Shown: positions 12,215 through 36,884 of the stretch, piece after piece
Numbering within the stretch: the stretch's first letter is position 1
How the letters are laid out: every line of letters begins with the position of its first letter
Assembly: GCA_022823105.1 (NCBI GenBank)
Contig: JAJDXU010000005.1
Span: forward strand, 1-41,334
DNA: 41,334 nt
Direction of reading: 5' to 3'
Origin: Dehalococcoidia bacterium
GTDB lineage: Bacteria > Chloroflexota > Dehalococcoidia > Lucifugimonadales > UBA3495
The notes under the pieces: generated by a model
Databases searched by the model: none
Told to the model about the DNA's origin: nothing
What the model saw: only the letters and a program-made list of their open reading frames with translations
Made by a program: the position numbers and the translations under genes

Positions 12215-12220
12215 GGAAGC

Positions 12221-13496: not shown

Positions 13497-13499
13497 CAG

Positions 13500-13844
13500 C
13501 TAGCCCTCCTGAATCTCGTCAACTTCAATGATGATGTGACTGGAGCGCCGCGTAACACGACCGATCCGGCCCCTGGCTCGTGCGCGGAACCTCTTCAGAG
13601 GCCGCGCCTGGTCCGCCGAGATGCGCGTGATGCGCAGTTCGTTGCGGTTCATGAACATGTTGTTTTCGGCATTGGACGCCGCCGACTGGACCACCTTGGC
13701 CACCGAACGGGCCCAGGGGGAGGTCATCAGGCTGAGATGGTCCAGGGCGTCGTTGACGGTCATGCCCCGGACCGCATCCATGATGGGTTTGAGCCGCTTG
13801 GGAGAAGCTCCCACCTGTTTGGCCATTGCCCGTACCACTGGCAT
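13500..13844 (-). CDS. rplV: 50S ribosomal protein L22
   Basis: 114 aa, located between rpsS and rpsC, with GASPKRLKPIMDAVRGMTVNDAL. Ends in TAG. Confidence 0.94.
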   Translation of the reverse strand: MPVVRAMAKQVGASPKRLKPIMDAVRGMTVNDALDHLSLMTSPWARSVAKVVQSAASNAENNMFMNRNELRITRISADQARPLKRFRARARGRIGRVTRRSSHIIIEVDEIQEG

Positions 13845-13848
13845 CGCG

Positions 13849-14133
13849 TCACCTCACCCTGCTGGAACGCTCGGATCGGGCGACGTGCCCGCGATACGTG
13901 CGCGTGGGCGCGAATTCGCCCAGGCGGTGTCCCACCATGTTCTCGGTGATAAAGACCGGAACGTGCCGGCGACCGTCGTGAACACCGAAGTTCAGACCGA
14001 CCATTTCCGGCATGATCATCGAATCTCTCGACCAGGTGCGAATCACGGTGGCTTCGCCTGATTCCCGGACCAGGTTGACCTTTTTCAGGAGCTTTGGATG
14101 GACGTAGGGTCCCTTTTTAATTGAACGCGACAT
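13849..14133 (-). CDS. rpsS: 30S ribosomal protein S19
   Basis: 94 aa starting [19 protein letters not shown]. Confidence 0.96.
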
Positions 14134-16733: not shown

Positions 16734-16922
16734 TATCGCTAGCCTGTTTGTGCTTCGTTGCGTCGGGCCGCTCCGGCCGATCACAACTCGTTGCGCCTGG
16801 GGATGCGACGGGCGCTTGGGCCCGCCACAAACGGAATGATGATTTTACGACGCTGCCAGTATTTATTCAACCCTGATTGGCCGGTATAGCCGCCGATTGA
16901 GCGCCAAATCAGGGTGAACCCT

Positions 16923-17234
16923 CTACAGTTTGATGGAAATGTCGACCCCCGCCGGCATATTGAGCCTGGTCAACGCGTCGATGGTTTTGCTGGTGGGTTC
17001 CATGATGTCCAGCAAGCGCTTGTGCGTCCGTATCTCGAAGTGCTCGCGCGAGTCCTTGTCGACGTGGGGCCCGCGGATGACGCAGAACCGTCGAATCTGC
17101 GTTGGCAACGGGACCGGTCCCGCCACGCGCGCGCCGGTCAATTCTGCGGTTTCAACGATTTGAGCGCTCGACTGATCCAGCATTTTGTGGTCAAAAGCCT
17201 TGAGGATGATGCGCATTTGCTGCCTGGCAACCAT
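16923..17234 (-). CDS. rpsJ: 30S ribosomal protein S10
   Basis: 103 aa with [17 protein letters not shown] and [17 protein letters not shown]. Confidence 0.96.
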
Positions 17235-17312
17235 GATTTACTTTCTTCAACTCTCCAAATGTCGCGCGCCCGCAGTTGCGGACGCTTGTTGTTCTAGCTG
17301 TTAGCCACGCTC

Positions 17313-19954: not shown

Positions 19955-20034
19955 GTTCTCTTCCGCCTTCGGTGTACATTAAGCCACCCCCCAGCGCGGG
20001 GGGTGACGGAACGGTTTTGTTTCTGGCGCCTGCT

Positions 20035-20445
20035 CTATCCCTTGCGGGTTCCGTATTTGCTGCGCCCCTGGCGGCGCCCGCTTACGCCTTCAGTGTCCAG
20101 GTTGCTGCGCACCACGTGGTAGCGCACTCCCGGCAGGTCCTTCACTCGCCCGCCGCGAATAAGCACCACCGAGTGCTCCTGCAGGTTGTGGCCCTCGCCG
20201 CCGATGTAGGCGGTAACCTCAACACCGTTGGTCAGCCGCACCCGGCATATCTTGCGCAACGCCGAGTTTGGCTTCTTGGGCGTCATTGTCCGCACCTGGA
20301 TGCAGACTCCGCGCCGCTGCGGACAGCCTGGGCCCCACTTGGTCCGGTTGCGCAGCGAGTTTTGCACCCAGTGGAGGGCAGGAGCCTTGGTGCCTTTGCG
20401 CACGGGCTTGCGACCCTTGCGTACCAGTTGATTCACAGTAGGCAT
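20035..20445 (-). CDS. rpsL: 30S ribosomal protein S12
   Basis: 136 aa with [13 protein letters not shown] and [11 protein letters not shown]. An internal insertion of about 13 aa ([13 protein letters not shown]) precedes the conserved RRGVC. Confidence 0.96.
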
Positions 20446-20494
20446 GATGATCCTTGTCTCACGCCCGTTTCAGAATCAGGCGCAACGTCGAAAA

Positions 20495-20523
20495 ATGTTA
20501 TCCCCACTCAACGGGTATGTCAA
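20495..20523 (-). promoter_or_regulatory. candidate sigma70-type promoter of the str operon
   Basis: The minus strand reads TTGACA (20523..20518), 17 nt, then TAACAT (20500..20495). This lies about 50 nt upstream of the rpsL ATG at 20445. Confidence 0.5.
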
Positions 20524-20679
20524 CTGCGGCCGAGTTCCACGTTGGCGCACTTCGGTAGCCGACATACCGCGAGGGTCGCGCCCGCGCGCTTGCGTCCGGC
20601 CGCTGTGGACGGCGGCCGCCGCCGGGCGCTATCGCCAACATCTGAAACACCATGCGGCCCGAAATCGCGTCGCCTGCCG

Positions 20680-20708
20680 TTGACCCCAGTTGAGCGCTAT
20701 GGCATAAT
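20680..20708 (+). promoter_or_regulatory. candidate sigma70-type promoter of otsA
   Basis: TTGACC (20680..20685), 17 nt, then CATAAT (20703..20708), about 80 nt upstream of ATG 20790. It is embedded in an AT-rich patch with direct and inverted repeats. Confidence 0.5.
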
Positions 20709-20789
20709 TCGGCTATCGCATAATAATTATGCCCATACGTCATAATCCGGCGGACCATGCGCCCGTCATAGAAAGGAAGGTATCTGAAT

Positions 20790-22307
20790 ATGTGGACCGG
20801 CGACGATTTACAGAGGCTGGTCAAGAGGGAATTGAGCGATTATCGACTCCTGGTAGTTTCCAACCGACAGCCATACGTTTTTGATATTGACGACGCGGGA
20901 AATCTCCGCGGTCAGATGCCCCCGGGAGGGCTCACCGCCGCAATCGACCCTTTAATGCGGGCGTGCGGCGGCACCTGGATCGCCCAGAGCAGCAGCGACG
21001 CCGACCGGGCCGCCATGGACGAGAATGGGCGCATCCCCGTTCCGTTTGATTCTCCTGCATACCGGATGCGCTTGCTCAATCTCAGCGAGGAAGAGAACAA
21101 CGGTTTCTACTACGGCTTCTCCAACGAAGGACTCTGGCCGCTGTGCCACATCGCCTACACCGAGCCGCTGTTCGACTCCGCGCACTACGGGTTCTATCAG
21201 TCGGTGAATCGGCGTTTCGCGGACCTGGTGCTCGACGAAATCGGCGACGACCCTGCCATCGTGCTGATTCAGGACTACCACCTGGCCCTGCTGCCCCGTT
21301 ACATCCGGGAAATCAACCAGGACGCGATCATCGGACAGTTCTGGCATATACCCTGGCCGAACCCCGACATCCTGAGGATCTGCCCGTGGCAGGAAGAAAT
21401 CCTCGACGGGATGCTGGGCAATGACCTGCTGGGGTTCCACCTGTCCGGCGACTGCCAGAACTTCATCAACTGTGTGGACGCCAACCTGGATGCCCAGGTG
21501 GACCCCGACTACGGTTTGGTGGACTACCGGAACGAGACCACCCTGGTGCGCCCCTTTCCCATCAGCATCGATTTCGACAGCCTGGACGCCGAGGCCAGGA
21601 CCGCCGAGGTTGAGGCCGAAATGGCTCGCCTGTCCCAGGAACTCGGGTTGAACCGCGGCCGCATCCTGGGTTTGGGAATCGATCGCCAGGACTACACCAA
21701 GGGCATCCCCCACCGGCTGCGCGCGGTAGAAAGGCTCCTGGAGAAGTGGCCGGAGTACCGGGGCCGGCTGGTATTCCTGCAGGCGGGCGCCACCAGCCGG
21801 ACCAATATCGACTCGTACATGCAGCTGACCATCGATATTGAGTCCATAGTCAACCGCATCAACGAACGGTTCGGATACGACGGTTGGCAGCCGGTGCTCT
21901 ACTGGCCGACCTCCCTGCCGTCCGCCACCTTTTCGGCCCTGCGACGGCTGGCCGGTTTCTGCGCCGAGAGCAGCCTGCATGACGGAATGAACCTGGTGGC
22001 CAAGGAATACGTGGCGTCGCGGGTGGACGAGGATGGCGTGCTGATCCTGAGCGCGTTCGCCGGCGCGGCGCAGGAACTCACCGGGTCCCTGATTATCAAC
22101 CCCTACGCTACCGAGCAGTTCGCCGACGCCATCCACCAGGCGCTGAACATGGGTGATCTGGAACGGCGGATGAGAATGCGACAGATGCGCAACACGGTCC
22201 AGGAGAACAACATCTACAAGTGGGCCGGGCGCATCATGATGCACCTGATGCAGGCCAGCACGCCCGACCACTCCCGGCTCACGGACCCCGTCGCGTCCAC
22301 GGCATGA
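20790..22307 (+). CDS. otsA: GT20-family alpha,alpha-trehalose-phosphate synthase (OtsA-like)
   Basis: 505 aa with [20 protein letters not shown] and [21 protein letters not shown] precedes the ATG, and a trehalose-phosphatase-like gene follows. A related GT20 specificity such as glucosylglycerol-phosphate synthase cannot be excluded. Confidence 0.8.
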
Positions 22308-22344
22308 TTTCAAGGCAACAGGCGCCCGGCGGCTATTCCGGGAG

Positions 22345-23148
22345 ATGCGCGTGACCGACCCCAACCGACCGGCCGACTTTCCAGGCTGGTCGGCTTTTTT
22401 TGGTGCCGGCGCGGGCGAATCGGGGATTCTCCTGCTGCTCGATTTCGACGGCACTCTCTCTGAGATCGTCGAGAATCCCGACGCGGCGGAGTTGCGCCCA
22501 GGCAACGCTCAAACGCTCGATAAATTGAGTCGCAAGCCCCGGCTCACCGTGGGGATCGTCAGCGGGCGTTCACTCCAGGACGTGGCTGATCGCATCGCGC
22601 TTTCCAACCTCATCTACGCCGGCAATCACGGCATGGAAATCAAGGGGCCCGGCATCCGGTATCTTCATCCCGAAGTCGCGGCTGCCGTCCCTGGTTTGCA
22701 GGAGATCAGGTCCAGGGTGAGCACGGCCCTCGCCGGCATACCCGGAGTGCAGGTGGAGGACAAGACACTGACACTGACCGTGCATTACCGGCGGGCTCCG
22801 GCCAGGTACCATGAGGAGGTTGAATCCATAGTCAGGTCGGTTGCGCATCCCGAAACGTCAACGGATCAATACAGGATCACGTACGCCAAGGCCGCCATCG
22901 AAGTGAGGCCCGCGGTGGACTGGCACAAGGGCAGGGCGCTGGAATTCATCAGGTCGCGGCTCGCCGCCCGAGCGTACACGATCTACATCGGCGACGACCG
23001 GACGGATGAGGACGCTTTCGAGGCGGCCCAGGCGGCGGGTGGCTGCGGAATTTTCGTGGGTCCCGCCGACGCCCCCAGCTGCGCCCGGTACCGGTTGGAG
23101 TCACCGGCGGCGGTGAGCGCCGTCCTGGCCGACCTGTCTTTGCGTTAG
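22345..23148 (+). CDS. otsB: HAD-IIB trehalose-phosphatase (OtsB-like)
   Basis: 267 aa with LLLLDFDGTLSEIV (DxDGT motif I), VSGRS, GNHGMEI and YIGDDRTDEDAF. The exact start is uncertain (ATG 22345 or GTG 22351). Confidence 0.8.
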   Translation: MRVTDPNRPADFPGWSAFFGAGAGESGILLLLDFDGTLSEIVENPDAAELRPGNAQTLDKLSRKPRLTVGIVSGRSLQDVADRIALSNLIYAGNHGMEIKGPGIRYLHPEVAAAVPGLQEIRSRVSTALAGIPGVQVEDKTLTLTVHYRRAPARYHEEVESIVRSVAHPETSTDQYRITYAKAAIEVRPAVDWHKGRALEFIRSRLAARAYTIYIGDDRTDEDAFEAAQAAGGCGIFVGPADAPSCARYRLESPAAVSAVLADLSLR

Positions 23149-23308
23149 TCTCCGGAACGCCGGCCGGCTTTGTTGGGGGTCGTCCTCGCTCACTGGGCGA
23201 ACTGCCGGTTGATGTGGGGCAATCACGGCAAGGTTGTTGTGCTATTATTGGCGGCGTCCGGCTTGGAGCCATCGGGCTACTTTCTCGAACCGGCGCAGTT
23301 TTCACCCA

Positions 23309-24019
23309 ATGATCGACGCTATTTTCTTTGATTTTTACAACACTCTGGTACGTTTCTGGCCCCCTCTGCCCCAGATTCAGCACGCCGCCTGCCAGAACCT
23401 GGGCATCCGAGTACCTCCTGATCAGCTGGCGCGCGGGTACGCCATAGCGGACCTCTACTTCAATGAAGAGAACCATCGCCTGCCCCTCGGTGACCGCGAC
23501 GCCGCCGACCGCGACGCGTTCTTCGCCCGCTACGAGCAGATTATCCTCGAGGAAGCGGGAGTTGCCGTTTCGCTGCGCATGGCCAAGCAGATCTGGGACA
23601 TGGCGATATCCGTTCCCAAAGAGCTGGTCGAGTTCGAGGAAACGCGGCCCGTTCTGGCGGAGCTCAAATCGCGCGGGTACCGGCTGGCCGTCCTGACCAA
23701 TCTGCGTCGGGACATGGAACAACTCACCAGGCAGTTGGGAATCCATGAGTACCTGGAGTTTTCCATCACCGGGCGCGAGGTCAGCGAGAAGCCGGCAACG
23801 GCGATATTCGAAGCCGGCCTGAAACGCATGGCGGTGCGGCCTGATCGTGCCATGCACGTAGGAGACCAGCCGCGTTCCGACGTCGAGGGAGCGCGGGAGG
23901 CCGGGCTCTATCCGGTCCTGATCGACCGGGGAGGATTCCACGCCGACGTGGTTGGCTGCGACCATATCGACAGCCTGGAAGGGCTCTATCCGTTGCTGGA
24001 CCGGCTCGCCACCTGCTGA
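23309..24019 (+). CDS. HAD-superfamily hydrolase, subfamily IA, with a DxYxT motif I
   Basis: Track ORF trimmed to ATG 23309. The product starts MIDAIFFDFYNTLV, with Tyr at the second-Asp position as in haloacid-dehalogenase-type HADs. It also has LAVLTN, EKP and HVGDQPRSDV. Substrate unknown. Confidence 0.75.
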   Translation: MIDAIFFDFYNTLVRFWPPLPQIQHAACQNLGIRVPPDQLARGYAIADLYFNEENHRLPLGDRDAADRDAFFARYEQIILEEAGVAVSLRMAKQIWDMAISVPKELVEFEETRPVLAELKSRGYRLAVLTNLRRDMEQLTRQLGIHEYLEFSITGREVSEKPATAIFEAGLKRMAVRPDRAMHVGDQPRSDVEGAREAGLYPVLIDRGGFHADVVGCDHIDSLEGLYPLLDRLATC

Positions 24020-24057
24020 CCACGGACCAAACATCACTCTGCAATCGGGGAGGCATC

Positions 24058-24717
24058 ATGATGACCCAGACGCCCGCTCACAACCATCCCGGAGACGCCA
24101 ACCCGGTACACGTGATCGTTTGGTACGACTACGTTTGACCCTGGTGCTACGTCGGCCTGGAACGCGTCGACAAACTGGCGGAAGAATATCCCATCACCGT
24201 GGAAGGGCGGGCATACCTGTTGCGCCCCGACACTCCCGCCGAGGGCCGGGTGCGCGAACCCCGGCCGGGCGAAACGGACGATGAACTGTCCGACCCATTG
24301 CGGACCCACGCCCGTGAGGCAAACATCGTAATGCGCCCGCCGCGCTATACGCCCAACAGCCTGAATTCCCTGCAGGCCACTGAGTACGCCCAGGAGCACG
24401 GCAAGTTCCTGGAATATCATCACGCCGCGTACGAAGCGTATTGGGACCGCAGGGAGAACCTGGGCGACACGTCGGTGCTCGCCGACATCGGAAACAGCGT
24501 GGGCCTGGACGGCGCGGAACTGAAGGAGCGCGTCGAGTCCGGGCACTACGCCCAGCGCGTGGTTGACCAGTATCACGAGGCCCTGGGTTACGGGATCCGC
24601 GGAATTCCCACCTTCGTGTTGGACAATCTCCTGTTCACCGGCGCCCAACCCTACGAGGTGTTCCAGAGGGTGATGGACAAGGCCCTGGAGAACCGGGAGT
24701 CCGGCGAGTCCCAGTAA
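24058..24717 (+). CDS. DsbA/FrnE-like thiol:disulfide oxidoreductase with in-frame TGA at the first active-site Cys (candidate selenoprotein, U-P-W-C)
   Basis: ATG 24058 is preceded by GGGGAGG (24047..24053). The frame reads MMTQTPAHNHPGDANPVHVIVWYDYV-TGA(24136..24138)-PWCYVGLERVDKL..., continuous with track ORF 24199..24717 (...GIRGIPTFVLDNLLFTGAQPYEVF...). The gene terminates with TAA. Confidence 0.7.
24151..24171 (+). promoter_or_regulatory. candidate bacterial SECIS hairpin
   Basis: GTCGGC (24151..24156) pairs with GTCGAC (24166..24171): 6 bp including one G-U. The loop is CUGGAACGC. The stem begins 12 nt after the TGA, and the loop GG lies about 21 nt downstream of it. Confidence 0.45.
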
Positions 24718-25254: not shown

Positions 25255-25734
25255 ATGGATGCCGATACCCGGTCCCTGATCAGCGACGCAGTCAATAATC
25301 AGCCGCAATCCACCGTGACCGTACTGTCCTCGTTGCTGGCCATCGAGGACGCAATCGGATACATCCCGAAAGAAGCGGTGGAAGCCGTTGCGCTGCGCAT
25401 GGACGCGACCATCAACGACGTCTGGGCGGTCGCCACCTTCTACCCCAACTTCCGGTTCGACCCGCCCACGGAACACCGGATCGAGGTCTGCTGGGGGCCA
25501 TCCTGCCACGTCATGGGGGCCGACCGCATAATCACCGCGGCCCAGGATGCGCTCAACCTCACCGACGAAGGGGACACGCCGGATGGCAGGGCGACGTTGC
25601 GCTACAACACTTGCCTGGGCGCCTGCGCGCACGCTCCGGTCATGGCAATCGACCACCACCTGGCCGGTCGCATCACCCCCGAATCCGCCCAACAGAAAAT
25701 AGCGGACGCTCTGCATTCCGCCGCCTCTCACTGA
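25255..25734 (+). CDS. NuoE/FdsG-like [2Fe-2S] thioredoxin-like ferredoxin subunit
   Basis: 159 aa with Cys pattern CWGPSCHVMGA...CLGACAHAPVMAID, typical of the complex I 24-kDa subunit family. Confidence 0.88.
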   Translation: MDADTRSLISDAVNNQPQSTVTVLSSLLAIEDAIGYIPKEAVEAVALRMDATINDVWAVATFYPNFRFDPPTEHRIEVCWGPSCHVMGADRIITAAQDALNLTDEGDTPDGRATLRYNTCLGACAHAPVMAIDHHLAGRITPESAQQKIADALHSAASH

Positions 25735-25747
25735 TCCGGCGGTTCCC

Positions 25748-27505
25748 TTGGCTACACCGACTGCTTCCAATTTCGAGCCCATCCTGGCTGAGGCGCAGCG
25801 CCGATGGCAGGACCTTACCAACGGCGACCGCCCGTGGATCCGCATAGGCACCGGTTTGGCCGGCGAGGCCGCCGGCGGGTTTGAGGTCGTCGCAGCCACC
25901 AAGTCGGTGCTGGAAGAACGCCAGATACAGGCGACCGTGTCGGAAGTGGGCACCCTGGGCCTTTGCTTCGCGGAACCCCTGCTGGATGTGCAGATGCCGG
26001 GCGGGGTGCGGGTGTTTTACCAGAACGTCACCCCGCAGATTGCCCAGCGCATTGTCAGCCAGCACGTATCCGGCGGCGAACCCATCCCGGAGCACGCGAT
26101 TGGATACCTGGGCGACCGCGCCCAGGCTCCCGACGGCATCCCTCACCTGGACGACCATCCCATGCGCGCGCTGGAACAGCGCATCGCCCTCCGCAACGCC
26201 GGAAACATCGACCCGTCGGACCTGTACCAGTACATCGCCAACGGCGGGTACTCCGCGCTGAACAAGGCCCTGTCGGAAATGTCACCCGACGAGGCGCGGC
26301 AGGAGGTGGTCACCTCCGGTTTGAGAGGACGCGGAGGTGCCGCGTTCCCGGCCGGCGTGAAGTGGGGGTTCCTGGCCGGCAATCCCGACCCCAACAAATA
26401 CATCCTGTGCAACTGCGAAGAGGGCGACCCCGGCGCTTTCAACGACCGCGGGATCCTCGAAAGCGACCCCGCAACCGTTGTCGAGGGCATCACCATCGCC
26501 GGCTACGCATGCAACGCCAACCGGGGTTATATCTTCATCCGCCATGGACACAACCAGCCCATCGACCGGACGCGCGCGGTCATCGAGCAGGCCTACGAAC
26601 TGGGACTGTTGGGCGAGAATATCCTGGGCAGCGGTTTCTCCTTCGACGTCGAGGTCGCCCTCACCGGCGACTCCTACGTGTCCGGCGAGGAAACCGCCCT
26701 GATGGAGGCCATCGAGGGCAAACGTTCCATGCCTCGCTACCGGCCCCCGTTCCCGGCGCAGGTGGGCGTATTCGGAAAGCCCTCCAACATCAACAACGTC
26801 AAGACCCTGGCCTACGTTCCCGAGATCGTCGCCCGGGGAGGCGAGTGGTTCGCCAGCATCGGAACGTCGGCAGACCCCGACCGGCGCATCAACGGCAGCA
26901 GCGGCACGGCGATCCTCTGCCTGTCCGGCGACATCACCTACCCGGGCCTGATCGAGGTACCGCTGGGCATGACGCTCAGGCAGGTCCTGTTCGACATGGC
27001 CGGCGGCGTTCCCAATGGCAAACGCATGAAGCTGCTGCAGACCGGCGGCCCCCTGGGCGGAGTGCTCTCAGCCAGCGATACGAACCTGGACCTGGTGCTT
27101 GATTTCGACGTGTTTCGCGCGGCGGGCGCCATCCTCGGGTCCGGCGGGATAATCGTGTGCGACGAGGACACGTGCGCCGTTGACCTCACCCGCAACCTGA
27201 TCGCTTTTTGCCAGTACGAGTCCTGCGGCAAGTGCTTCCCCTGTCGCATGGGGATGAGCCACCTCCTCGAGGTGCTGGAGCGCATCAGCAACCTGGAAGG
27301 CACCGAGGAAGACCTGGCGTTGATGCGCAACATAGGCGAAAACATGCAGGCCGGGTCCCTCTGCGGCCACGGGCAACTGGGATTCAACCCGGTGTCGTCG
27401 GCCCTGCGCTATTTCGGCGACGAGTTTGAGGCGCACATCAGGGACAAACGGCACACCGGCGACTGCCCGGAGCAGGTCTATTCGCCGAGACTCACGCGTC
27501 GCTAG
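25748..27505 (+). CDS. NuoF/FdsB-like NAD(H)-binding FMN/[4Fe-4S] subunit with an extra N-terminal domain
   Basis: 585 aa with a TTG start. It has GLRGRGGAAFPAGVKWGF (FMN/NADH site) and ESCGKCFPCRMG...SLCGHG (N3-type cluster). About 140 additional N-terminal residues are present, as in soluble FdsB/HoxF-type proteins. Confidence 0.88.
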   Translation: MATPTASNFEPILAEAQRRWQDLTNGDRPWIRIGTGLAGEAAGGFEVVAATKSVLEERQIQATVSEVGTLGLCFAEPLLDVQMPGGVRVFYQNVTPQIAQRIVSQHVSGGEPIPEHAIGYLGDRAQAPDGIPHLDDHPMRALEQRIALRNAGNIDPSDLYQYIANGGYSALNKALSEMSPDEARQEVVTSGLRGRGGAAFPAGVKWGFLAGNPDPNKYILCNCEEGDPGAFNDRGILESDPATVVEGITIAGYACNANRGYIFIRHGHNQPIDRTRAVIEQAYELGLLGENILGSGFSFDVEVALTGDSYVSGEETALMEAIEGKRSMPRYRPPFPAQVGVFGKPSNINNVKTLAYVPEIVARGGEWFASIGTSADPDRRINGSSGTAILCLSGDITYPGLIEVPLGMTLRQVLFDMAGGVPNGKRMKLLQTGGPLGGVLSASDTNLDLVLDFDVFRAAGAILGSGGIIVCDEDTCAVDLTRNLIAFCQYESCGKCFPCRMGMSHLLEVLERISNLEGTEEDLALMRNIGENMQAGSLCGHGQLGFNPVSSALRYFGDEFEAHIRDKRHTGDCPEQVYSPRLTRR

Positions 27506-27558
27506 TCGGTTGCCATGCGAACCTTGCCGGCCTATGCAACCGCGGATTAGGAGCATCC

Positions 27559-30405
27559 ATGCCTGACGACATTACCATCTCGATAGACGGGGTGGAAATC
27601 AGGACGCAACCCGGGAAGATGGTCCTTGAAGCGGCCATCGATGCCGGGGTGTATGTCCCCTATCTCTGCTATCACTCGGGCATGAAACCGTACGCGGCAT
27701 GCCGCATGTGCGTGGTGGTCGCGGAAAATGAGCGGGGCCGTGTGCCGGGATTCCCGGCCGCCTGCACCCTGGCGGCCACCGACGGCATGACCGTCTGGAG
27801 CGAAACCCCCGACGTGAACGAACTGCGCCGCTCCGTCATGCAGATGCTCATCGCCGAGCACCCCAACGGCTGCCTGACCTGCCACCGGGTGGAAATCTGC
27901 GGGCCGTCCGATGTCTGCCTCCGGCACGTTTCCGTCAACGACCGTTGCGTCACGTGCCCCAAGAACGAGCGTTGCGAGTTCAAGGACACCGTCCGCTATC
28001 TGGGGATGGAACTGGAATCCCCCATGACCTACATGTACCGGGACATCCCGCTGGAGGTCAGCGACCCGTTCTACGACCGGGATTACAACCTCTGCATCAC
28101 CTGCGGACGTTGCGTCCGCGTCTGCGAAGAAGTGCGCGGCGACAGCGCGATCTGTTTCACCGAGCGGTCTGGCAAGGCGCTGGTGGGAACGTCATTCGGA
28201 ACCTCCCTGCTGGAATCCGGGTGCGAATTCTGCGGCGCGTGCCTGGACGTGTGTCCGGTGGGCGCGCTCACCGAACGGGAAAACAAGTGGGAGAAGGCCG
28301 CCACCGTGCAGCGAACCATCTGCACCCACTGCCCGGTGGGATGCCAGATGAACCTGGAAATCAACCAGCAGGGTCGGGTGATCCGGGCTATCCCGGAGTA
28401 CAATTCCCCGGCAAACCACGGGCAGGCCTGCTACAAGGGCAAGTTCGGCTTGAGCCACCTGACCAGTGGCGACCGGCTGCGCCGTCCGATGATCAGGCGC
28501 AACGGGATCCTTGAGCCGGCGACGTGGGACGAAGCGTTGGACCTCGTTACGGAACGGCTGCGACCGCACCAATCGGGAACCGGGTTCGGCCTGATCACGG
28601 CGGCGGACAGCACCAACGAGGAATTTTACCTGGCGCAGAAGTTCGCCCACATCGGGATGCAGACCCACAACCTGGACCACTCCGGCAACGTCCAGCCGGA
28701 CCTGACTCGTGGGCTCGAGGATGTGCTGGGATACCCGGGAGCCACCAATTCGATCTGGGAACTGAAGGACTCCGATTGCATCCTCGTTTTCAACACCAAC
28801 CTGACCGAGAGCCACAACGTTGTCGGCGTCCCCATCAAGCAGGCCGCAATGAGCGGCGTCCCGCTGATCGTGATCGACACACGCGAGGTTGAACTCACCC
28901 GTTACGCGCATCTGTGGCTCAGGCCAACCCCCGGCGCCGAGCTGCTGCTCATCGGGGCAATCCTGAAAACCGTGCTGGACGAAGGCTTGGTGGACGCCGA
29001 GTGGATGGCGGACAACGTGGACGACCACGACACTCTGCTCTACGAACTGGAGCGGATTGACGATGAAGCCATCGCGTCCACCGGCGTTCCGCGCGACGAC
29101 ATCGTGCAGGCTGCCCGCCTGTACGCCACTGCCGGCAACGCGGCCATCGTTTACGGCCTGGACAACGTGCCCGCCGCCGTCACCCGAGATTGCGTCGTCG
29201 CGCTGTGCGACCTGGCGCTTTTCACCGGCAACGTGGGGCAAGCTGGAGGCGGCCTGTTCCCCATGAGGCAGGGCGCCAACACGCAGGGAGCCACCGACAT
29301 CGGTTGCATACCCAACCGGCTGCCCGGCGGCGGCCCGCTGTTCGATGACAGCAACCGGGCCCGTGTCGAGGAGATCTGGGGAGCGCCGCTGCCCCCGCCG
29401 CGACACAGCATGGGCGTCGGAGAGATGCTGGACGCCGCCACGTCCGGCGATATAAAGTCCATGATCGTCGTCGGCGACAGCCCGAACTTCACCAACGGCC
29501 TGCTGGGCGACGGCCTCGCCGCGCTGGAGCGACTGGACTTCCTGGTCGTAATGGACACGTTCCTCACGCAGCCGGCTCAGATCGCGGACGTGGTGCTGCC
29601 CCGAGTGACCTTCGCGGAGAAGGACGGGACATTCACCAACATCGAAAGGCGCATCCAGCGAGTCCGGCCGGCGGTGTCGGTGCGGAACAACGACGCGAAA
29701 CCCGAGGGTTGGGTTTTCGAGCAGTTGGCCCGGCGGTTGGGCATAGATGGCATCAGCTACGACGATCCGGCAGCGTTGATGGACGAGATCGCCTCGGTAA
29801 CCCAGCACTACGGCGGCATCAGCTATGACCGGTTGGCCCGGGAATCTTCCCTGGTGATGCAGACCGGGGTCGAATCTCCACGGCCCACCCAGATCCTCTA
29901 CACCTCCCGCGAGGAACGCGGAATCCAGTGGCCGTGCCCGGCCTCCGACAGCCCGTCCTCGCCGGTCCTTTACGCCGACGGCTTCCCCAACGGCAAAGCC
30001 GAACCGGGCGCCCCGCGATTCCGGGTTATCGATTGGGAGACGGAGCCGGAATATCCCGCCCTGCTGGTACCCGGCCGGGTCCTGCTGCAGCAGGAACGCG
30101 ACACCACCATCGAGCACGGTGACCTCAACCGGATCGTCCGGGACGAAGAGGTGCAACTCAACCCTCAGGACGCGGCAGAGTGGGACCTGGCCGAAGGCGA
30201 TGCCGTCGTGGTCGTCACGTCCACCAGACGAATCACCGGCGCCGTCAGAGCGAGCGCGTCCGTTCCGCGCGGGGCAGTGGCCATCACCACGCTTTTCGGG
30301 GAACTGGCCGTCGAGTTGCAGATGTCCGAAGACGTGAACCCCATGGCGCGAGTGCCGGGGCTCCAGATTGAACCCTGCCGTGTGGAAAAGCTGGTGACGG
30401 CTTAG
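27559..30405 (+). CDS. NuoG/FdhA-like Fe-S plus molybdopterin-oxidoreductase-fold subunit lacking the Cys/Sec Mo ligand
   Basis: 948 aa. It has an N-terminal 2Fe-2S ferredoxin fold (CYHSG...CRMC), several CxxCxxC clusters (CITCGRCVRVC, CEFCGACLDVCP) and the MopB-domain cluster CTHCPVGC...CYKGKF. The expected active-site segment reads HNLDHSGNVQPDLTRGL, with no Cys and no TGA. Confidence 0.85.
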   Translation: MPDDITISIDGVEIRTQPGKMVLEAAIDAGVYVPYLCYHSGMKPYAACRMCVVVAENERGRVPGFPAACTLAATDGMTVWSETPDVNELRRSVMQMLIAEHPNGCLTCHRVEICGPSDVCLRHVSVNDRCVTCPKNERCEFKDTVRYLGMELESPMTYMYRDIPLEVSDPFYDRDYNLCITCGRCVRVCEEVRGDSAICFTERSGKALVGTSFGTSLLESGCEFCGACLDVCPVGALTERENKWEKAATVQRTICTHCPVGCQMNLEINQQGRVIRAIPEYNSPANHGQACYKGKFGLSHLTSGDRLRRPMIRRNGILEPATWDEALDLVTERLRPHQSGTGFGLITAADSTNEEFYLAQKFAHIGMQTHNLDHSGNVQPDLTRGLEDVLGYPGATNSIWELKDSDCILVFNTNLTESHNVVGVPIKQAAMSGVPLIVIDTREVELTRYAHLWLRPTPGAELLLIGAILKTVLDEGLVDAEWMADNVDDHDTLLYELERIDDEAIASTGVPRDDIVQAARLYATAGNAAIVYGLDNVPAAVTRDCVVALCDLALFTGNVGQAGGGLFPMRQGANTQGATDIGCIPNRLPGGGPLFDDSNRARVEEIWGAPLPPPRHSMGVGEMLDAATSGDIKSMIVVGDSPNFTNGLLGDGLAALERLDFLVVMDTFLTQPAQIADVVLPRVTFAEKDGTFTNIERRIQRVRPAVSVRNNDAKPEGWVFEQLARRLGIDGISYDDPAALMDEIASVTQHYGGISYDRLARESSLVMQTGVESPRPTQILYTSREERGIQWPCPASDSPSSPVLYADGFPNGKAEPGAPRFRVIDWETEPEYPALLVPGRVLLQQERDTTIEHGDLNRIVRDEEVQLNPQDAAEWDLAEGDAVVVVTSTRRITGAVRASASVPRGAVAITTLFGELAVELQMSEDVNPMARVPGLQIEPCRVEKLVTA

Positions 30406-30483
30406 CATGTGCGTTCCCGCTGGCCGGAGTTATGCGCCGCCCGCGTGGCTTGAGCGAACTACTGTCGACCGAATGGAGTTACT

Positions 30484-31239
30484 ATGACCAGTGTCCGAAC
30501 CGCCACCGCGCGCAGGGATCGCACCGCGAACCTGCCCCGCGCCCGCCTCGTGGAGCGCGTCGACTACACGGATGACTTGATGGTCATCAAGATGGAACCG
30601 CAGGGGTTCGAGTTCAACTTCAAGCCGGGGCAATACTGCACCCTCGGCCTGGACGGGATCGAGCGCGCCTACTCCATCGCGTCGGCTCCACACGAACCCT
30701 TCCTGGAAATCTTCGTCGAACTGGTTCCCGACGGCGAACTCACTCCCAGGATGTGGCAAATGGACATCGGCGACACCATGTCGATCCGTCCGCGGGCCAA
30801 GGGCATCTTCCTGATGGACCGCACCGCGACGCAGCACCTGATGCTAGGCACCGTGACCGGGGTGGCGCCCTTCGTCAGTATCGTGCGAGATTTCATCCAT
30901 CGCGGACATACCGGGCACCATTTCTACCTGCTGGAAGGGGCATCCTACCTGGACGAGCTGGTTTACGACACGGAACTGGCCAGCACGGCGGCACAGCACT
31001 CCGAGACCCTCACGTTCGTCCCGGCAATCAGCCGCCCCACGGAGGAGCGCAACGCGGCCTGGACCGGAGCCACCGGGCGGCTGAACAACATCGTGGCCGA
31101 TTATGTGAAGAAATTCGACCTCAACCAGGACGACACGCTCATCTACGCCTGCGGACATCCCGGCATGATTGAGTCCAGCCGTGAGATCGTTACCGCGACC
31201 GGCTGGCGCTGGACCGAAGAGCGGTTCTGGAAAGAATAA
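30484..31239 (+). CDS. Fpr-type ferredoxin/flavodoxin-NADP(+) reductase-like flavoprotein
   Basis: 251 aa with the RAYSIAS FAD-binding motif and LGTVTGVAPF NAD(P)-binding motif. Its size and layout match bacterial Fpr. Confidence 0.8.
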   Translation: MTSVRTATARRDRTANLPRARLVERVDYTDDLMVIKMEPQGFEFNFKPGQYCTLGLDGIERAYSIASAPHEPFLEIFVELVPDGELTPRMWQMDIGDTMSIRPRAKGIFLMDRTATQHLMLGTVTGVAPFVSIVRDFIHRGHTGHHFYLLEGASYLDELVYDTELASTAAQHSETLTFVPAISRPTEERNAAWTGATGRLNNIVADYVKKFDLNQDDTLIYACGHPGMIESSREIVTATGWRWTEERFWKE

Positions 31240-31361: not shown

Positions 31362-33980
31362 ATGGTTACCACCAGCGCCCGGCTCACGCCCGTCCGGCGG
31401 CAGTACCTGACCATCAAGCACTCGTACCCGGACGCCATCCTCCTGTTCAGGATGGGCGACTTTTACTAGTGCTTCGACGACGATGCCAAAACGCTGTCCG
31501 AGGCCCTGGAGGTCGCGTTGACCTCGCGTTCCATGGGCAAGGACACCCGCATCCCGATGGCCGGCGTACCTGCGGTTTCGCTGGAAACCAACCTGTCCCG
31601 ACTGATCCGCCAGGGTTACAAGGTGGCCATTTGCGAGCAGCTCAGCGACCCGGCCCTGTCCAGGGGCCTCGTCGAACGTGGGGTGGTGCGCGTGGTGACG
31701 CCCGGAACGGTGCTGGAATCCGCGTTGCTCGACCAGGGGGCCAACAACTATCTCGCCGCCGTTTGCTCCGCCGATGACCGGGCGGGATTGGCCTACGTGG
31801 ACGTGACCACCGGGGAATTCTCAGTGGCGGAAATCCCGCTGGGCGAACTGCCACTGGAACTGGCGCGGCTGGAAGCGTCCGAAATCCTGATCCCGCCCGA
31901 CTTTGAGCTGCCCGCTCTGCCCGCCGCCGATGGGCCCGCGGCCGTTATCACGGCTCTCGACGCCTCCGCCTTCAACCCGGAGATCGCGCGCCGTTCCCTG
32001 CTGGACCACTACGGCGTGCTGTCGCTGGAGGCGTACGGGCTGGAGTCGCGCGGCGTGGAATCGATGCCCATGGCGGTGCGGGCCGCCGGCGCCATCGTTG
32101 ACTACCTCAATTATACCTGGCAGGGAGAGCGGCCGCGCCTCGCGCCGCCCCGCGTGTTGGAGAGCGACGCGTACATGACGCTGGATCCCCAGACCCGCCG
32201 CAACCTCGAGTTGTTCGAGGCCGGTCGCCGGGACTCCCGCGATTATTCCCTGCTGGCGGCGCTGGACGACACCAGAACCGCCATGGGCGCCCGCCTGCTG
32301 CGGAGATGGCTGGGTCGGCCGCTGCTGGACCTGGAGAGGCTGGAGCGCAGGCTTGATGCGGTGGACTTTTTCTACAACAACGCCTTCCGGCGTGACGACG
32401 CGACCGCCGCGCTGTCGGACGTTGCGGACCTGGAACGCATCCTGACGCGCATCCAGACCCAGAACGCTCCGCCCCGCGATCTGCTGGCGTTGCGGCAGAG
32501 CCTGCGGGCGGCCGAACGCCTGGAGCCCGCGTTGACCGGCGAAGGGGCGGACGGCATGGGCTGGCTGGCTGCTGGCCTGCGGCCGCTGCCGGAAGTGGCG
32601 AACCTGGTCGACGCTGCAATCGCGGACGAACCGTCAACCCAGCCCGGCGACGGAGGGGTCATCAGGGAAGGATTCTCCCCCGAACTCGACCGCATCCGCT
32701 CCATGTCGCGGGACGCCCGGGGATTCATCGCCAGCCTGGAGTCCCAGGAGCGCGAACGCACCGGCATCCGCAACCTCAAAGTGGGGTTCAACCAGGTGTT
32801 CGGTTACTACATCGAGGTCAGCCGCTCCAACCTGGAACTGGTGCCCGACGATTACCAGCGCCGGCAGACCCTGACCAACGGGGAACGTTACATCACGCCC
32901 GAACTGAAAGAATACGAGGGTCAGGTGCTGGACGCTCGGGAACGGCTGGAACAGCTCGAACGTACGCTGTACCGGCAAGTGTGCCAGCAGATCGCCGACC
33001 ATGCCGACGGCATTTCGAGGATGGCGGCGGCCATCGCCAGGGTCGATGTGTTTGCAGGGCTGGCCAATATCGCGGCGCGGCATGGATACGTGCGGCCCGA
33101 GTTGAGCGGCGGCAGCGCCATCAGCATCGTGGGGGGCCGCCATCCGGTGGTGGAACGCGTCCTCGGGGCCGGCGAATTCGTGCCCAACGACGCCGCGCTG
33201 GATGCCGATGATGCCCAGATCATGCTGATCACCGGGCCCAACATGGCGGGGAAATCCACCTATATCCGGCAGGTCGCCATCATCGTCCTGATGGCGCAGG
33301 TGGGCAGCTTTGTCCCCGCGACTTCGGCCTCCATCGGCCTGGTGGACCGGATTTTCACGCGGGTGGGGTTGCAGGACGACCTGGCCACCGGGCAATCCAC
33401 CTTCATGGTTGAAATGGTGGAAACCGCCGCCATCCTGAACCAGGCCACCTGGCGTTCGCTGGTCATCCTGGACGAGATCGGGCGCGGCACCAGCACCTAC
33501 GACGGATTGTCCATCGCCCGCGCCGTGGTTGAGCATCTGCACAACAACCCCAAAGTCAGCAGCAAGACCCTGTTCGCCACCCATTACCATGAACTGACCG
33601 ACCTGGCCGCGACGCTGCCGGGCGTGCGGAACTACCGGGTGGCGGTGTCGGAGGAGGATGGGCGCGTCGCATTCCTGCACCGAATCGTGCCCGGCGGAGC
33701 CGACCGGTCCTACGGCGTGCACGTGGCGATGCTGGCCGGCATGCCGACTTCGGTGGTGAACCGGGCGCAGGAATTGTTGACCGAGCTGGAGCGGGATAAA
33801 CCGGCCGGGCGGGCCCAGCGGCGTGGCAAAACCCCACCCCCTCAGCTCGCCCTCCCGCTTTTCGACCGGGACGAGGCGGAACTCGCCCGTGCCATCCTCG
33901 AGCTGGATATTGGAAACCTCACGCCGCTGGAGGCGATCAACAAGCTGTACGAGTTGCAGGAGCAGGCTCGCAAGACGTGA
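31362..33980 (+). pseudogene. mutS: DNA mismatch repair protein MutS interrupted by an in-frame TAG at codon 36
   Basis: ATG 31362 gives [38 protein letters not shown](31467..31469)-CFDDDAKTLSEALEVALTSRSMGKD..., in the same frame as the 820-aa track ORF 31518..33980 (Walker A GPNMAGKST). TAG terminates rpsD and rplV in this window. Confidence 0.85.
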
Positions 33981-34205
33981 TTCGGCGGGAGATTCTCATA
34001 ATTTACAGAAAATTTACTTCCGCCCCGCGAGCATGGCATGGCCATGGGTATAGAATGTCAGAGTCCGATCATTATTTTTCGTGGATTGGGTTTACCGCTT
34101 GCATCACGGTGATGGGCATAAAGGACGTATCGAAATTTCCGTATATACTGTGCATCCGGTTGGGAAACGGAAAAATCGCATTTCACCAGGCGTGGAGATG
34201 ATGAA

Positions 34206-34568
34206 ATGACTGATTCGGCGACGATCTATTGGTGGCCGCGTTGAAGTAGCTGTCGCAAAGTGCGGGAGTTGCTCGTGCAGAACGGACTGACGGTGACTGA
34301 ACGGGACTATTTCAAAGAACCGTTTACCGAGCGGGAGCTCAGCGATCTGGTCGCCGAAGTGGGAAAGCCCGGTGTGAGCGCCATGTTCGCGAGCCGGAGC
34401 CCATCGCTGAAGAAGATGGGCCTGACCGCCGCCGAACTATCCGATGAGCGCAAATTCTCTCTCATGCTGGAGGAACCCAGGCTGGTGCGCCGGCCGCTGG
34501 TGCGCCTGGGCGACCGGCTCCTGATCGGAGCCAGCGTCAAGGCCATCACCGAGGCCATTTCCGGGTAA
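34206..34568 (+). CDS. ArsC/Spx/YffB-family protein with in-frame TGA at the first Cys of CxxC (candidate selenoprotein, U-S-S-C)
   Basis: ATG 34206, with GGAG at 34194..34197. The frame reads MTDSATIYWWPR-TGA(34242..34244)-SSCRKVRELLVQNGLTVTERDYFKEPF..., continuous with track ORF 34260..34568 (...EPRLVRRPLV...). The gene terminates with TAA. Confidence 0.7.
34250..34280 (+). promoter_or_regulatory. candidate bacterial SECIS hairpin
   Basis: The lower stem pairs CUGU (34250..34253) with GCAG (34277..34280). The upper stem pairs GCAA (34255..34258) with UUGC (34269..34272). The apical loop AGUGCGGGAG (34259..34268) has GGG about 20-22 nt after the UGA. Confidence 0.4.
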
Positions 34569-34610
34569 GCAAAACGCATCTGCGACGGACCACTAACGCG
34601 ACGACCTGCC

Positions 34611-35048
34611 ATGAAAATCTTTTTTGATGTGGACTACACCATCCTGGGGCTGGACGACACCCTGCGTCCCGGAACAATAGACACCTTCCAAAAGTTGCTG
34701 GACGACGGCCACGAAATCTACATCTGGTCAGGGATGGGCGAACGATGGGAGGTCATCGAGAAGCACGAACTGCACCGGTTCGTGAGCGGCGTCTACGAGA
34801 AGCCCACCCACCACTACCACGAGCGCCTGGAAGAACTGAAAATTCCCATTGAGCCGGAGTTCGTGATTGACGACTATCCGGAAATCGTCGCAGCGTTCGG
34901 CGGCGTCTGGGTGCCCCCGTACTTTTTCTCGCGCAGCGTTGACCACGAGATGGAGAGGATTTACCGCATCATCTGCGATTTTACGGAAACAGGCGATTCC
35001 GAGGACCGGCAGTACCGGGCCAAGGGCACCAAGATCCCACTGTTCTAG
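34611..35048 (+). CDS. small HAD-like hydrolase (capless)
   Basis: 145 aa starting MKIFFDVDYTILG (DxDxT motif I), with IYIWSG and FVIDDYPE. Function unknown. Confidence 0.6.
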   Translation: MKIFFDVDYTILGLDDTLRPGTIDTFQKLLDDGHEIYIWSGMGERWEVIEKHELHRFVSGVYEKPTHHYHERLEELKIPIEPEFVIDDYPEIVAAFGGVWVPPYFFSRSVDHEMERIYRIICDFTETGDSEDRQYRAKGTKIPLF

Positions 35049-35138
35049 TTTGCGGCGCCGTCCCTGCCATCCCAGCGCCCTGGTGAATGCAACCAGGGCG
35101 CTCATGCGGTTAAAATAAGGGACGAGGTTTCTCCGGTT

Positions 35139-36884
35139 ATGCCGATTCGCCAACTCCCCCCGAACGTGGCCGCGCAGATCGCCGCCGGCGAGGTGGTGGA
35201 GCGGCCGGCCTCCGTGGCCAAGGAACTGCTGGAAAACGCGCTCGACGCCGGGGCAACTCGCGTCTCCGTGTCGGTAAGCGGCGGAGGCGTATCCGAGATC
35301 CGGGTGTCCGACGACGGTTCCGGTATCCCCGCCGACGAACTCGCGCTGGCGTTCCGCCGCCATGCCACCAGCAAGCTGGCGACCGCCTCAGATCTGGAGA
35401 CCGTGGGCACGCTGGGGTTCCGCGGCGAAGCACTCCCCAGCATCGCCGCGGTGGCGAGAGTCACGTGCACGACTCGCCCCGCAGATGCGGACACCGGCGC
35501 CCGGATCGACCTCCGGTACGGCAATCTGGTGGCCGAAGAGCCGGTCGGATGCCCGGTTGGAACGACGGTGCAGGTGGTCGAACTGTTCGGCAACGTGCCG
35601 GCCCGTCGACGGTTCCTGCGATCGCCGGCTGCGGAGACCGCGCGCATCCAGGAGGTGGTGACCCGCTACGCGCTCGCCTGCCCGGATGTCCGGTTCACGC
35701 TGACTGCGGATGGCCGGGAGCAGGTGAACACGACGGGCAACGGCAGCCTGCAGGATGTGATCCTCTCCCTGTATGGGAGGGACACGGCTTCCCGGATGCT
35801 GCCGGTCTCGGCCAACGAGGGCGAGATGGCGGTCTCCGGGTACACCGGCGCTCCCGATCTCAACCGGCACAACCGGTCGTACATCACCCTGCTGGTGAAC
35901 CGGCGCTGGGTGTACCACCGTTCGATCATGTACGCCATCGAGCAGGCCTACCGGGGTACGCTGCCCGACCGCCGCTATCCGCTGGCCGTGATCAACCTGG
36001 TTCTGCCGCCGGCTGATGTTGACGTCAACTCCCATCCCACCAAGCGCGAAGTCCGGTTCCGCAACGAGAACCGGATCTTCTCGGCGGTGCAACGGGCGGT
36101 GAGCGACGCGCTGGTGGCCCACGCTCCCGTGCGCCAGGTGTCCCGTTCATTCGCAGTAACCGGGGAAACATACTCGGAGACTCATAGATCGTCCGGTTAT
36201 CCGTCGGCGCAGCCCTGGGCCGGGCGATCCCAGTCGCCGCCGTCGGACACCCTCGCCCTGCCGACCACCGGGTTGGCTCCAACGGGCGGCTCGCTGCGGG
36301 ACGTGCTGACCGGCCTGCGGGTAGTCGGGCAGATTCGTCAGACGTATATCGTGGCGGAAGGAGACCAGGGAATGTACCTGGTGGACCAGCACGCGGCCCA
36401 CGAGCGGGTTGTGTACGACCGGATCCGTTCGGGCAGCGAACGTCGGGAGACCGTCGCCCAACCCCTGCTGGCCCCAACTCCCGTGGAGCTGAACCTGGCC
36501 CGGACTGCGACGCTGCAGGATTATGCGGAAATGCTGGCGGAGTACGGCTTCCAACTGGAACCGTTCGGCGGGGATGCGTGGCTGGTGCGGGCGGTGCCGG
36601 CGGCGTTGACGGCGCGAAACAACCCGGATCCGGCGGCGGCCCTGGTCAACCTGCTGGACGCGGTATCAGTGGAGCAGGTGGTGATGGAACGGGAGGACGC
36701 GTTGGCTGCCACCATCGCGTGCCATGGCGCGGTGCGGGCCGGAGACCGTCTCAGCACGGACGAAATGGATGCCCTGCTGCGCCAACTGGAATCCACGGAG
36801 AACCCGCACAACTGCCCGCACGGCCGGCCGACGGTGATCCACTTCACCGAATACCAACTGGAGCGGGAATTCGGACGGCGCTAA
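35139..36884 (+). CDS. mutL: DNA mismatch repair protein MutL
   Basis: 581 aa starting MPIRQLPPNVAAQIAAGEVVERPASVAKELLENALDAGA (GHKL ATPase), with GFRGEALPSI. The C-terminal domain is apparently intact. Confidence 0.95.
   Translation: MPIRQLPPNVAAQIAAGEVVERPASVAKELLENALDAGATRVSVSVSGGGVSEIRVSDDGSGIPADELALAFRRHATSKLATASDLETVGTLGFRGEALPSIAAVARVTCTTRPADADTGARIDLRYGNLVAEEPVGCPVGTTVQVVELFGNVPARRRFLRSPAAETARIQEVVTRYALACPDVRFTLTADGREQVNTTGNGSLQDVILSLYGRDTASRMLPVSANEGEMAVSGYTGAPDLNRHNRSYITLLVNRRWVYHRSIMYAIEQAYRGTLPDRRYPLAVINLVLPPADVDVNSHPTKREVRFRNENRIFSAVQRAVSDALVAHAPVRQVSRSFAVTGETYSETHRSSGYPSAQPWAGRSQSPPSDTLALPTTGLAPTGGSLRDVLTGLRVVGQIRQTYIVAEGDQGMYLVDQHAAHERVVYDRIRSGSERRETVAQPLLAPTPVELNLARTATLQDYAEMLAEYGFQLEPFGGDAWLVRAVPAALTARNNPDPAAALVNLLDAVSVEQVVMEREDALAATIACHGAVRAGDRLSTDEMDALLRQLESTENPHNCPHGRPTVIHFTEYQLEREFGRR

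Follow-up and report, generated by a model that had tools for sequence, protein, structure and literature searches.

An in-frame UGA very likely read as selenocysteine in an ArsC/Spx-fold gene between mutS and mutL of Dehalococcoidia

Does the TGA triplet at 34242-34244 of a Dehalococcoidia contig end a short reading frame, or does it encode selenocysteine (Sec)? The question is raised by a stretch of 41,334 nt (contig JAJDXU010000005.1 of assembly GCA_022823105.1, Dehalococcoidia bacterium; the whole stretch is called the window below), in which an ArsC/Spx-like gene lies between mutS and mutL. An original prediction, made from the letters alone, had proposed that this gene starts upstream of the listed open reading frame (ORF) and carries a TGA at the first Cys of its redox motif. 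Judged by comparison with related sequences, UGA 34242 is very likely read as Sec, and 34206-34568 would then form a single gene, with a selenoprotein of 120 residues and the ArsC/Spx/YffB fold as its product. Direct support comes from the single gene, the conserved TGA, the Cys homologues, a hairpin with covariation and the fold. The features that carry the argument are the following.

34206-34568, + strand: coding sequence of the predicted ArsC/Spx-fold selenoprotein, 120 codons including Sec13 (translation, Pfam, tblastn, coding signature)
34194-34197, + strand: Shine-Dalgarno-like GGAG, 8 nt 5′ of ATG 34206 (direct read)
34242-34244, + strand: in-frame TGA, position U13, in the column of the first Cys of CxxC (26 of 27 assemblies; alignment with Spx Cys10)
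34251-34253, + strand: TGT codon of Cys16, the candidate resolving Cys of U-S-S-C (alignment with Spx Cys13)
34260-34278, + strand: upper stem-loop resembling a selenocysteine insertion sequence (SECIS) element, with 5′ arm 34260-34266 (GUGCGGG), loop 34267-34271 (AGUUG) and 3′ arm 34272-34278 (CUCGUGC)
34252-34255 with 34283-34286, + strand: SECIS-like lower stem enclosing the upper stem-loop (RNAalifold consensus)

Read directly, the frame runs from ATG 34206 through MTDSATIYWWPR, TGA 34242-34244 and SSCRKVRELLVQ... to the stop TAA 34566-34568; in translation, the residues following TGA 34242-34244 are SSCRKVRELLVQNG..., running to the same TAA. GGAG, its 8-nt spacing, the ATG, the in-frame TGA and the true stop TAA all stand as originally read. 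The mechanical ORF list holds only 34260..34568 (GTG start, 102 aa). With a C substituted at the TGA, the full-length protein matched the Pfam ArsC family PF03960 with 60.7 bits (threshold 24, E=1.7e-16) over profile positions 1-77 of 79, whereas the truncated ORF covered positions 15-77 only, in agreement with the earlier view that it lacks the first beta-strand and the redox motif.

The coding signal continues upstream of the TGA, as the longer frame implies. The tblastn alignment spans residues 1-120 in 19 genomes. Pairwise nucleotide identity was 0.27-0.32 in the 60 nt 5′ of the ATG, 0.54 over codons 1-6 and 0.86 over codons 7-12. By codon position, identity in the upstream codons was 0.86/0.91/0.67, the third position being the least constrained. 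Among 20 sequences all four codons were used at the Pro11 column, both at Tyr8 and all four at Ala5, with the amino acids fixed. Most orthologues have a GGAG(A) at 7-9 nt upstream of the start codon, though the adjoining non-coding DNA is unconserved. The G+C content at third codon positions (0.56 in the first 18 codons, 0.80 in the rest of the gene) is uninformative at a length of 18 codons. To judge from these patterns, the 12 codons upstream of the TGA are translated and under selection at the amino-acid level, with a sharp boundary at ATG 34206.

This bears on the public annotation, according to which the TGA is a stop, the product of 97-102 aa begins at GTG 34260 or ATG 34275, and the upstream 36 nt form a leader or a short upstream ORF. 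Nearly all database entries are indeed called at 95-102 aa, both downstream starts exist, and a hairpin just 5′ of a start could in principle be regulatory. Such a product, however, would be devoid of beta-1 and of the redox motif, entering the Pfam profile only at position 15, and the codon taken as ‘start’ at 34260 encodes Val19, within helix alpha-1. In addition, the residues upstream of the TGA align one-to-one with Spx and with full-length Cys homologues, and the 12 codons that encode them are selected as protein up to a sharp edge at an ATG having its own GGAG. A true start at GTG 34260 with nothing conserved before it was the counter-case named with the original prediction; the 18 codons upstream of it are instead conserved as coding sequence. 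We consider the annotated reading very improbable.

How widely is the TGA itself conserved? A homologue search gave 310 proteins, almost all called at 95-102 aa and cut at the same place. The close-family sample was made of 19 orthologues from genome contigs and 6 more divergent ones from look-ups of the encoding contigs, that is 25 from Dehalococcoidia/Chloroflexota. TGA occupied the identical column in 25/25, at 49-93% amino-acid identity, within the motif YWWPR-TGA-[ST]-[ST]-C-R-K; the Cys16 codon encoded Cys in 20/20 sequences, as TGT or TGC. A homologue from TARA Oceans with 40% GC (P0122, locus L030; TARA_SAMEA2623098 scaffold, 64-603) also has an in-frame TGA at this column. Read in the standard code (code 11), its gene has a true TGA stop and mutL directly downstream, and its product is 46% identical to P0094, the Cys form described next. 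The public call of this locus used code 4 and took three TGAs as Trp, resulting in a 179-aa artefact.

With the 25 orthologues and the TARA homologue, TGA was thus present in 26 of 27 close-family assemblies. The exception, L020 (protein P0094), is the sole close homologue without it and has TGC at the column. More distant full-length relatives read C-S-[STQD]-C-R at the motif; one of these distant Cys forms, P0123, was found only on contigs of less than 1 kb, which give no gene context. The column proposed for Sec is therefore one of TGA, once TGC, in the close family, and of CxxC in the wider one, as suggested originally.

This distribution also bears on the possibility of a pseudogene or of a sequencing or assembly error, a TGC or TGT being misread as TGA. 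The contig does hold a premature stop of such a kind: mutS starts at ATG 31362, and its codon 36 is a TAG (31467-31469) at the Glu of the Phe-X-Glu mismatch-binding motif (GDFYE), so errors or null alleles occur there. This Glu column is GAA or GAG in 20/20 relatives and the TAG is private to the contig; an 820-aa ORF from TTG 31518 represents the rest of mutS after it. The TAG is either a private nonsense (possibly mutator) allele or an assembly error. The TGA of the ArsC-like gene is the opposite case. The 27 assemblies are independent, come from different projects and sequencing platforms and differ widely (46-93% protein identity); the 26 with TGA show no further lesion in the reading frame, and purifying selection acts both 5′ and 3′ of the TGA. 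An error or a decayed gene has, in our opinion, next to no probability.

If the UGA is recoded as Sec, a SECIS element should follow it. The RNAalifold consensus selects the helix 34260-34266/34272-34278, which begins 15 nt 3′ of the UGA. By the distance rules for bacterial elements this is a SECIS placement, and there is a G among the first two loop positions; compared with G23 and U24 of fdhF, the loop G and U are shifted by 4 nt away from the UGA. The upper helix is paired in 98.7% of cells in the 22 sequences compared and can form in 22/22. In four sequences one base pair is A-U instead of C-G, and three further pairs vary compatibly (U-G, C-G, U-A; G-U, A-U, G-C; G-U, A-U). The covariation score was reached by 0/500 shuffles, and slid partners pair in only 27-53% of cells. 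Loop positions A, G, U and U are invariant in the compared sequences. In the lower stem 92% of cells are paired and variation is one-sided only; the window sequence itself makes three of the four pairs. The upper helix is also retained in the TARA homologue, around another loop (GCAAGAG-AGGUU-CUCUUGC), and the distant Cys form L028/L029 does not form the hairpin.

Constraint on synonymous sites coincides with the hairpin region. Codon entropy over codons 12-28 averaged 0.70, against 1.14 elsewhere (Mann-Whitney p=0.003), and synonymous choice is frozen at Glu21 (GAG 20/20), Leu22 (TTG 17/17) and Leu23 (CTC 20/20), where other Leu columns use 3-6 codons. The original prediction had placed a GGG-containing apical loop in this region: a conserved stem-loop after the TGA is borne out, but GGG 34264-34266 forms the top of the 5′ arm and the loop is AGUUG, so that the loop had been misplaced by about 3 nt. 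The candidate resembles bacterial SECIS elements (E. coli fdhF type; bSECIS consensus of Zhang & Gladyshev) in being a stem-loop within the coding sequence soon after the UGA, with a conserved loop G (and U). It differs from them in lacking an Rfam SECIS match, and binding of SelB to it is putative.

Could the UGA be read through without Sec, by near-cognate Trp or Cys insertion or by a reassignment of TGA throughout the lineage (code 4 or 25)? Such a reading would fit the lack of Sec machinery in the window and in the 304 kb of related loci fetched (see below), as well as the use of code 4 by one gene caller for the TARA homologue. Within the window, however, TGA ends 8/24 confidently identified genes, no internal TGA was found in ribosomal or other housekeeping genes, and the ArsC-like gene itself ends in TGA in 13/20 orthologues. 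TGA is thus an ordinary stop elsewhere, which excludes a reassigned code; the recoding has to be context-dependent. For near-cognate readthrough, the occurrence of Cys at this column in homologues, the classic UxxC motif and the conserved hairpin at SECIS distance all argue otherwise, and Dehalococcoidia are documented Sec users (PMC13326102). Readthrough without Sec is highly unlikely.

The fold places the UGA at the position of a redox Cys in related proteins. The best matches of the protein among solved structures are Spx proteins of B. subtilis (E about 2e-11), in which Cys10 is opposite the TGA and Cys13 opposite Cys16 (U13-S-S-C16 compared to C10-T-S-C13). This confirms the alignment with the N-terminus of Spx/YffB in the original prediction, with the TGA in place of the first Cys. 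The full-length protein also weakly matches the Pfam Glutaredoxin family. A structure was modelled with AlphaFold2 for the Cys homologue P0094, not for the window protein, and reached a mean predicted local distance difference test score (pLDDT) of 94.3. In this model beta-1 comprises residues 6-11 and the Sec-equivalent Cys14 lies in the loop after it; helix alpha-1 (16-27) has the second Cys at its start. Foldseek superposed Spx, ArsC and YffB structures on it equally well (template modelling scores 0.7-0.87), and the fold therefore does not assign a subfamily.

Several results weigh against the Sec reading or against a firm placing of its product. First, neither the window nor 304 kb of related loci contained selA, selB, selD or tRNA-Sec, which is expected for so small a sample; ARAGORN detected no tRNA of any kind in the window and 19 loci, and tblastn with E. 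coli SelD and SelA gave nothing against the 304 kb. Second, the covariance-model search suggested with the original prediction came back negative: no Rfam SECIS model, nor any other family of relevance, matched the whole window at the gathering threshold or 34150-34400 at E<=10. Third, double changes in the upper helix are limited to one base pair in two related groups, the rest being one-sided. Fourth, the Cys form L020 (a 1.4-kb Logan contig, SRR13378643) retains the hairpin (GUAAGGG-AGUUG-CUCUUAC, within 407-466), which is consequently not strictly tied to the TGA. Fifth, the minimum free energy fold of the window is another hairpin, 34245-34273 (-15.2 compared to -8.2 kcal/mol). Finally, the product scores below the cut-offs of the NCBIfam models for Spx/MgsR (TIGR01617, 65.3 bits, cut-off 75.05), ArsC (TIGR00014, 54.8 bits, cut-off 106.05) and ArsC family (seleno)protein (NF041106, 27.2 bits, cut-off 85).

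The hairpin of L020 may be a remnant left by a recent switch from Sec to Cys (TGA to TGC); fossil SECIS elements after such changes have been described for other families (PMC1794560). Alternatively, a base-call error may be present in the 1.4-kb contig, or the hairpin may have another role. As for the hairpin 34245-34273, it was rejected as a functional element: 84-86% of its cells are paired, not above shuffles, it cannot form in 7/22 sequences (L011, L017-L019, L021, L023 and L024) and it starts right after the UGA, at the position of the decoding ribosome.

Sec decoding in the lineage can be approached from a second gene of the window, already pointed to as a further candidate in the original prediction.

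24058-24717, + strand: DsbA-like second candidate selenoprotein, VWYDYV-U-PWCYVG, with TGA at 24136-24138 (PF01323, E=3.6e-33 with C at the TGA)

Its TGA sits at the first Cys of CPWC, and the best 120 homologues are all truncated at the N-terminus. This TGA recurs in the chromosome carrying the ArsC-like orthologue L012 (locus L027). A hairpin with loop UGGAAC follows 13 nt after the TGA (two outer pairs are possible from 11 nt), with a folding energy not better than that of shuffles (z=+1.4). BSepDB (2026) curates selenoproteins only from species with a Sec pathway, and two Dehalococcoidia metagenome-assembled genomes (MAGs), with 49 and 46 genes, are among the ten most selenoprotein-rich bacteria (PMC13326102). 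One of these belongs to the same MAG series, named by universally unique identifiers, as several of our orthologue loci.

From these data the following course of events would be expected. Translation would start at ATG 34206, and UGA 34242 would be decoded as Sec instead of acting as a stop. The stem-loop 34260-34278 and its short lower stem would serve as a bacterial SECIS element that brings SelB-GTP-Sec-tRNA(Sec) to the ribosome while it pauses at the UGA; insertion by SelB is presumed here. U13-S-S-C16 would then lie between beta-1 and alpha-1, the classic position of a redox-active CxxC. There the selenolate could act as the attacking nucleophile and form a reversible selenenylsulfide with Cys16.

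What, then, does the protein do? Besides the three NCBIfam models cited above, the YffB-type model NF008107 (25.1 bits, cut-off 121) and the Spx-specific models NF002459, NF009210 and NF009885 (scores far under their cut-offs) also failed to claim it. Since every NCBIfam score is below its cut-off and the fold does not discriminate, we describe it as an unclassified UxxC protein of the ArsC superfamily, nearest to Spx/MgsR. NF041106 is the ArsC-family model that NCBI uses to annotate selenoproteins; the window protein falls under its cut-off, is of another subfamily and is not captured, which is consistent with NCBI naming the orthologues ‘hypothetical protein’ and truncating them. On balance we lean towards a thiol/selenol oxidoreductase or redox relay, co-expressed with the adjacent HAD-like protein.

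A regulator of the Spx type, which would bind the C-terminal domain (CTD) of RNA polymerase alpha and use a Sec-Cys selenenylsulfide as a switch without being an enzyme, seems unlikely. B. subtilis Spx (PDB 1Z3E, 3GFK, 7F75) and its family model TIGR01617 are the closest solved relatives and the best NCBIfam model; the fold is shared, and UxxC falls column for column on the C10-x-x-C13 switch, with equivalents of Gly52, Arg60 and Arg92 present. These three residues, however, are common to the whole ArsC superfamily and do not discriminate, any more than the Foldseek matches, which include ArsC and YffB structures as well as Spx. The score remains below the Spx/MgsR cut-off, the C-terminal tail of Spx is missing from the protein of 120 aa, and across the family the segment opposite the alpha-CTD contact (around Gly52) varies and carries indels. 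The protein further differs from Spx in carrying Sec in place of Cys and in belonging to another phylum; binding to RNA polymerase is putative here. Spx regulators are essentially a feature of Firmicutes, and we know of no transcription factor that contains Sec.

A true arsenate reductase is still less probable. With the glutaredoxin-coupled ArsC of E. coli R773 (PDB 1I9D; TIGR00014) the protein shares superfamily and fold, and BLASTP against the R773 sequence aligned Cys12 with Sec13 and Arg94 with Arg96 (RRP), so that Sec would occupy the catalytic position. In the same alignment, which does not reach as far as Arg107, Arg60 is opposite Ala62 and close to Arg64. In contrast to R773 ArsC and to the UxxS selenoproteins called ‘Arsenate reductase (ArsC) 1’, a resolving Cys is present here (UxxC, not CxxS or UxxS).

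The genes surrounding the locus are as follows.

31362-33980, + strand: mutS (Pfam MutS_I to MutS_V; synteny)
34611-35048, + strand: HAD-like gene of 145 aa with motif I DVDYT, 42 nt after the selenoprotein gene (weak HAD matches; synteny)
35139-36884, + strand: mutL (Pfam HATPase_c_3, DNA_mis_repair, MutL_C; position kept in all loci)

The location between mutS and mutL, with a small HAD-like gene next, had been noticed in the first place and is upheld by Pfam and synteny. The order FdhA-like, FNR-like, MutS, ArsC-like, 145-aa ORF and MutL is kept in 25/25 Dehalococcoidia loci and is fixed among high-GC Dehalococcoidia down to about 50% protein identity. The HAD-like ORF lies directly downstream in each of these 25 loci and also after the Cys form in L020; on the TARA contig it is mutL that directly follows the selenoprotein gene. 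No other gene of the neighbourhood is as conserved as the HAD-like ORF (74-97% identity, 94/145 columns invariant, compared to 60-91% for MutS and 51-93% for the selenoprotein). Its family matches are weak and N-terminal only (TIGR00099, E=3e-4; PF08282, E=5e-3), a PDB sequence search gave nothing and a single-sequence structure model was unusable (pLDDT 42). No terminator was predicted between the two genes, and a promoter and terminator scan of 33900-35250 gave no sites, with no sigma-70-like match in the spacer 33981-34205. The missing sites are compatible with co-transcription of the selenoprotein and HAD-like genes, but are no proof of it.

Such a context leaves some room for a more ambitious and doubtful idea, since Spx proteins are the closest solved relatives, the gene order is fixed and the linkage to mutL extends to a 40%-GC marine lineage. 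The product might be a Spx-like selenenylsulfide redox sensor, wired with its HAD-like partner into the mutS/gene/HAD/mutL cluster. If so, it would couple, for example, oxidative stress to mismatch repair or transcription, and would be the first regulatory protein containing Sec.

Some further observations concern the DNA around these genes. The mutS/ArsC-like spacer (33981-34205, 225 nt) has 46% GC, against 63% for the window, is unconserved among relatives and is probably a promoter region. An ORF within it, 33977-34201 (74 aa), had no family match and one weak match in relatives, and was therefore treated as non-coding. The Arg codon 34239-34241 just 5′ of the UGA is CGT in 20/20 orthologues, while Arg is six-fold degenerate and other Arg columns use 3-4 codons; this may reflect a context effect on UGA recoding or on termination efficiency.

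Further upstream, a + strand cluster at 25255-31239 comprises NuoE-like, NuoF-like, molybdopterin FdhA-like (948 aa) and FNR-like genes. It is syntenic with mutS in relatives and looks like an operon of the NAD-linked formate dehydrogenase type. The cluster has no in-frame stop, and its catalytic residue is therefore not Sec, although the lineage uses selenium. Several + strand ORFs of up to 566 aa without Pfam match (about 1950-3700, 6900-7420, 8700-14000, 16900-17300 and 19970-20750) lie opposite or between the genes of a minus-strand ribosomal-protein/SecY/Adk/RpoA cluster, in which RpoA is encoded at 834-1922. Antisense ORFs are typical of DNA with 63% GC, and those that overlap genes of the minus strand are probably spurious. 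Two minus-strand ORFs, 20952-22505 (517 aa) and 22949-24037 (362 aa), had no Pfam match.

The bacterial selenoproteome surveys of 2006 already include ArsC-like selenoproteins (PMC1794560). The Global Ocean Sampling study (Zhang & Gladyshev 2008) gives a family ‘Arsenate reductase 2, cd03032, UxxC’ with 42 Sec and 238 Cys sequences (PMC2398784). A 2022 review counts ‘Arsenate reductase-like protein, COG1393, UxxC’ as a predicted family and has an entry ‘DsbA-like, pfam01323, UxxC’ (PMC9312934); the ArsC-like family is listed in BSepDB as well. The window gene resembles the Global Ocean Sampling family (pfam03960/COG1393, cd03032) in its ArsC domain, in having Sec first in UxxC, in its many Cys homologues and in the SECIS downstream. 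That family is from marine and uncultured bacteria, and one homologue of the window gene comes from TARA Oceans. Membership of one clade is suggested by domain and motif, not by the sequences of that family, and the accessible parts of the papers on it describe no mutS/gene/HAD-like/mutL context. Going by these comparisons, UxxC ArsC-like selenoproteins have been predicted since 2008, and the gene described here would be a well-supported and unsurprising addition to them. What is new is modest: a mis-annotation throughout a clade, a SECIS with comparative support and the fixed pairing with a mini-HAD gene between mutS and mutL.

Our understanding of Sec decoding and of the ArsC superfamily is unchanged by the gene. 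Its significance lies in the proteomes concerned. More than 100 database clusters of orthologues are called as ‘hypothetical’ or ‘arsenate reductase-like’ proteins of 95-102 aa, without their active site, and the DsbA-like gene is treated likewise. Corrected calls would restore two redox-active selenoproteins to the proteomes of Dehalococcoidia and supply a clade-specific SECIS model, and they support the view of uncultured Dehalococcoidia as heavy users of selenium.

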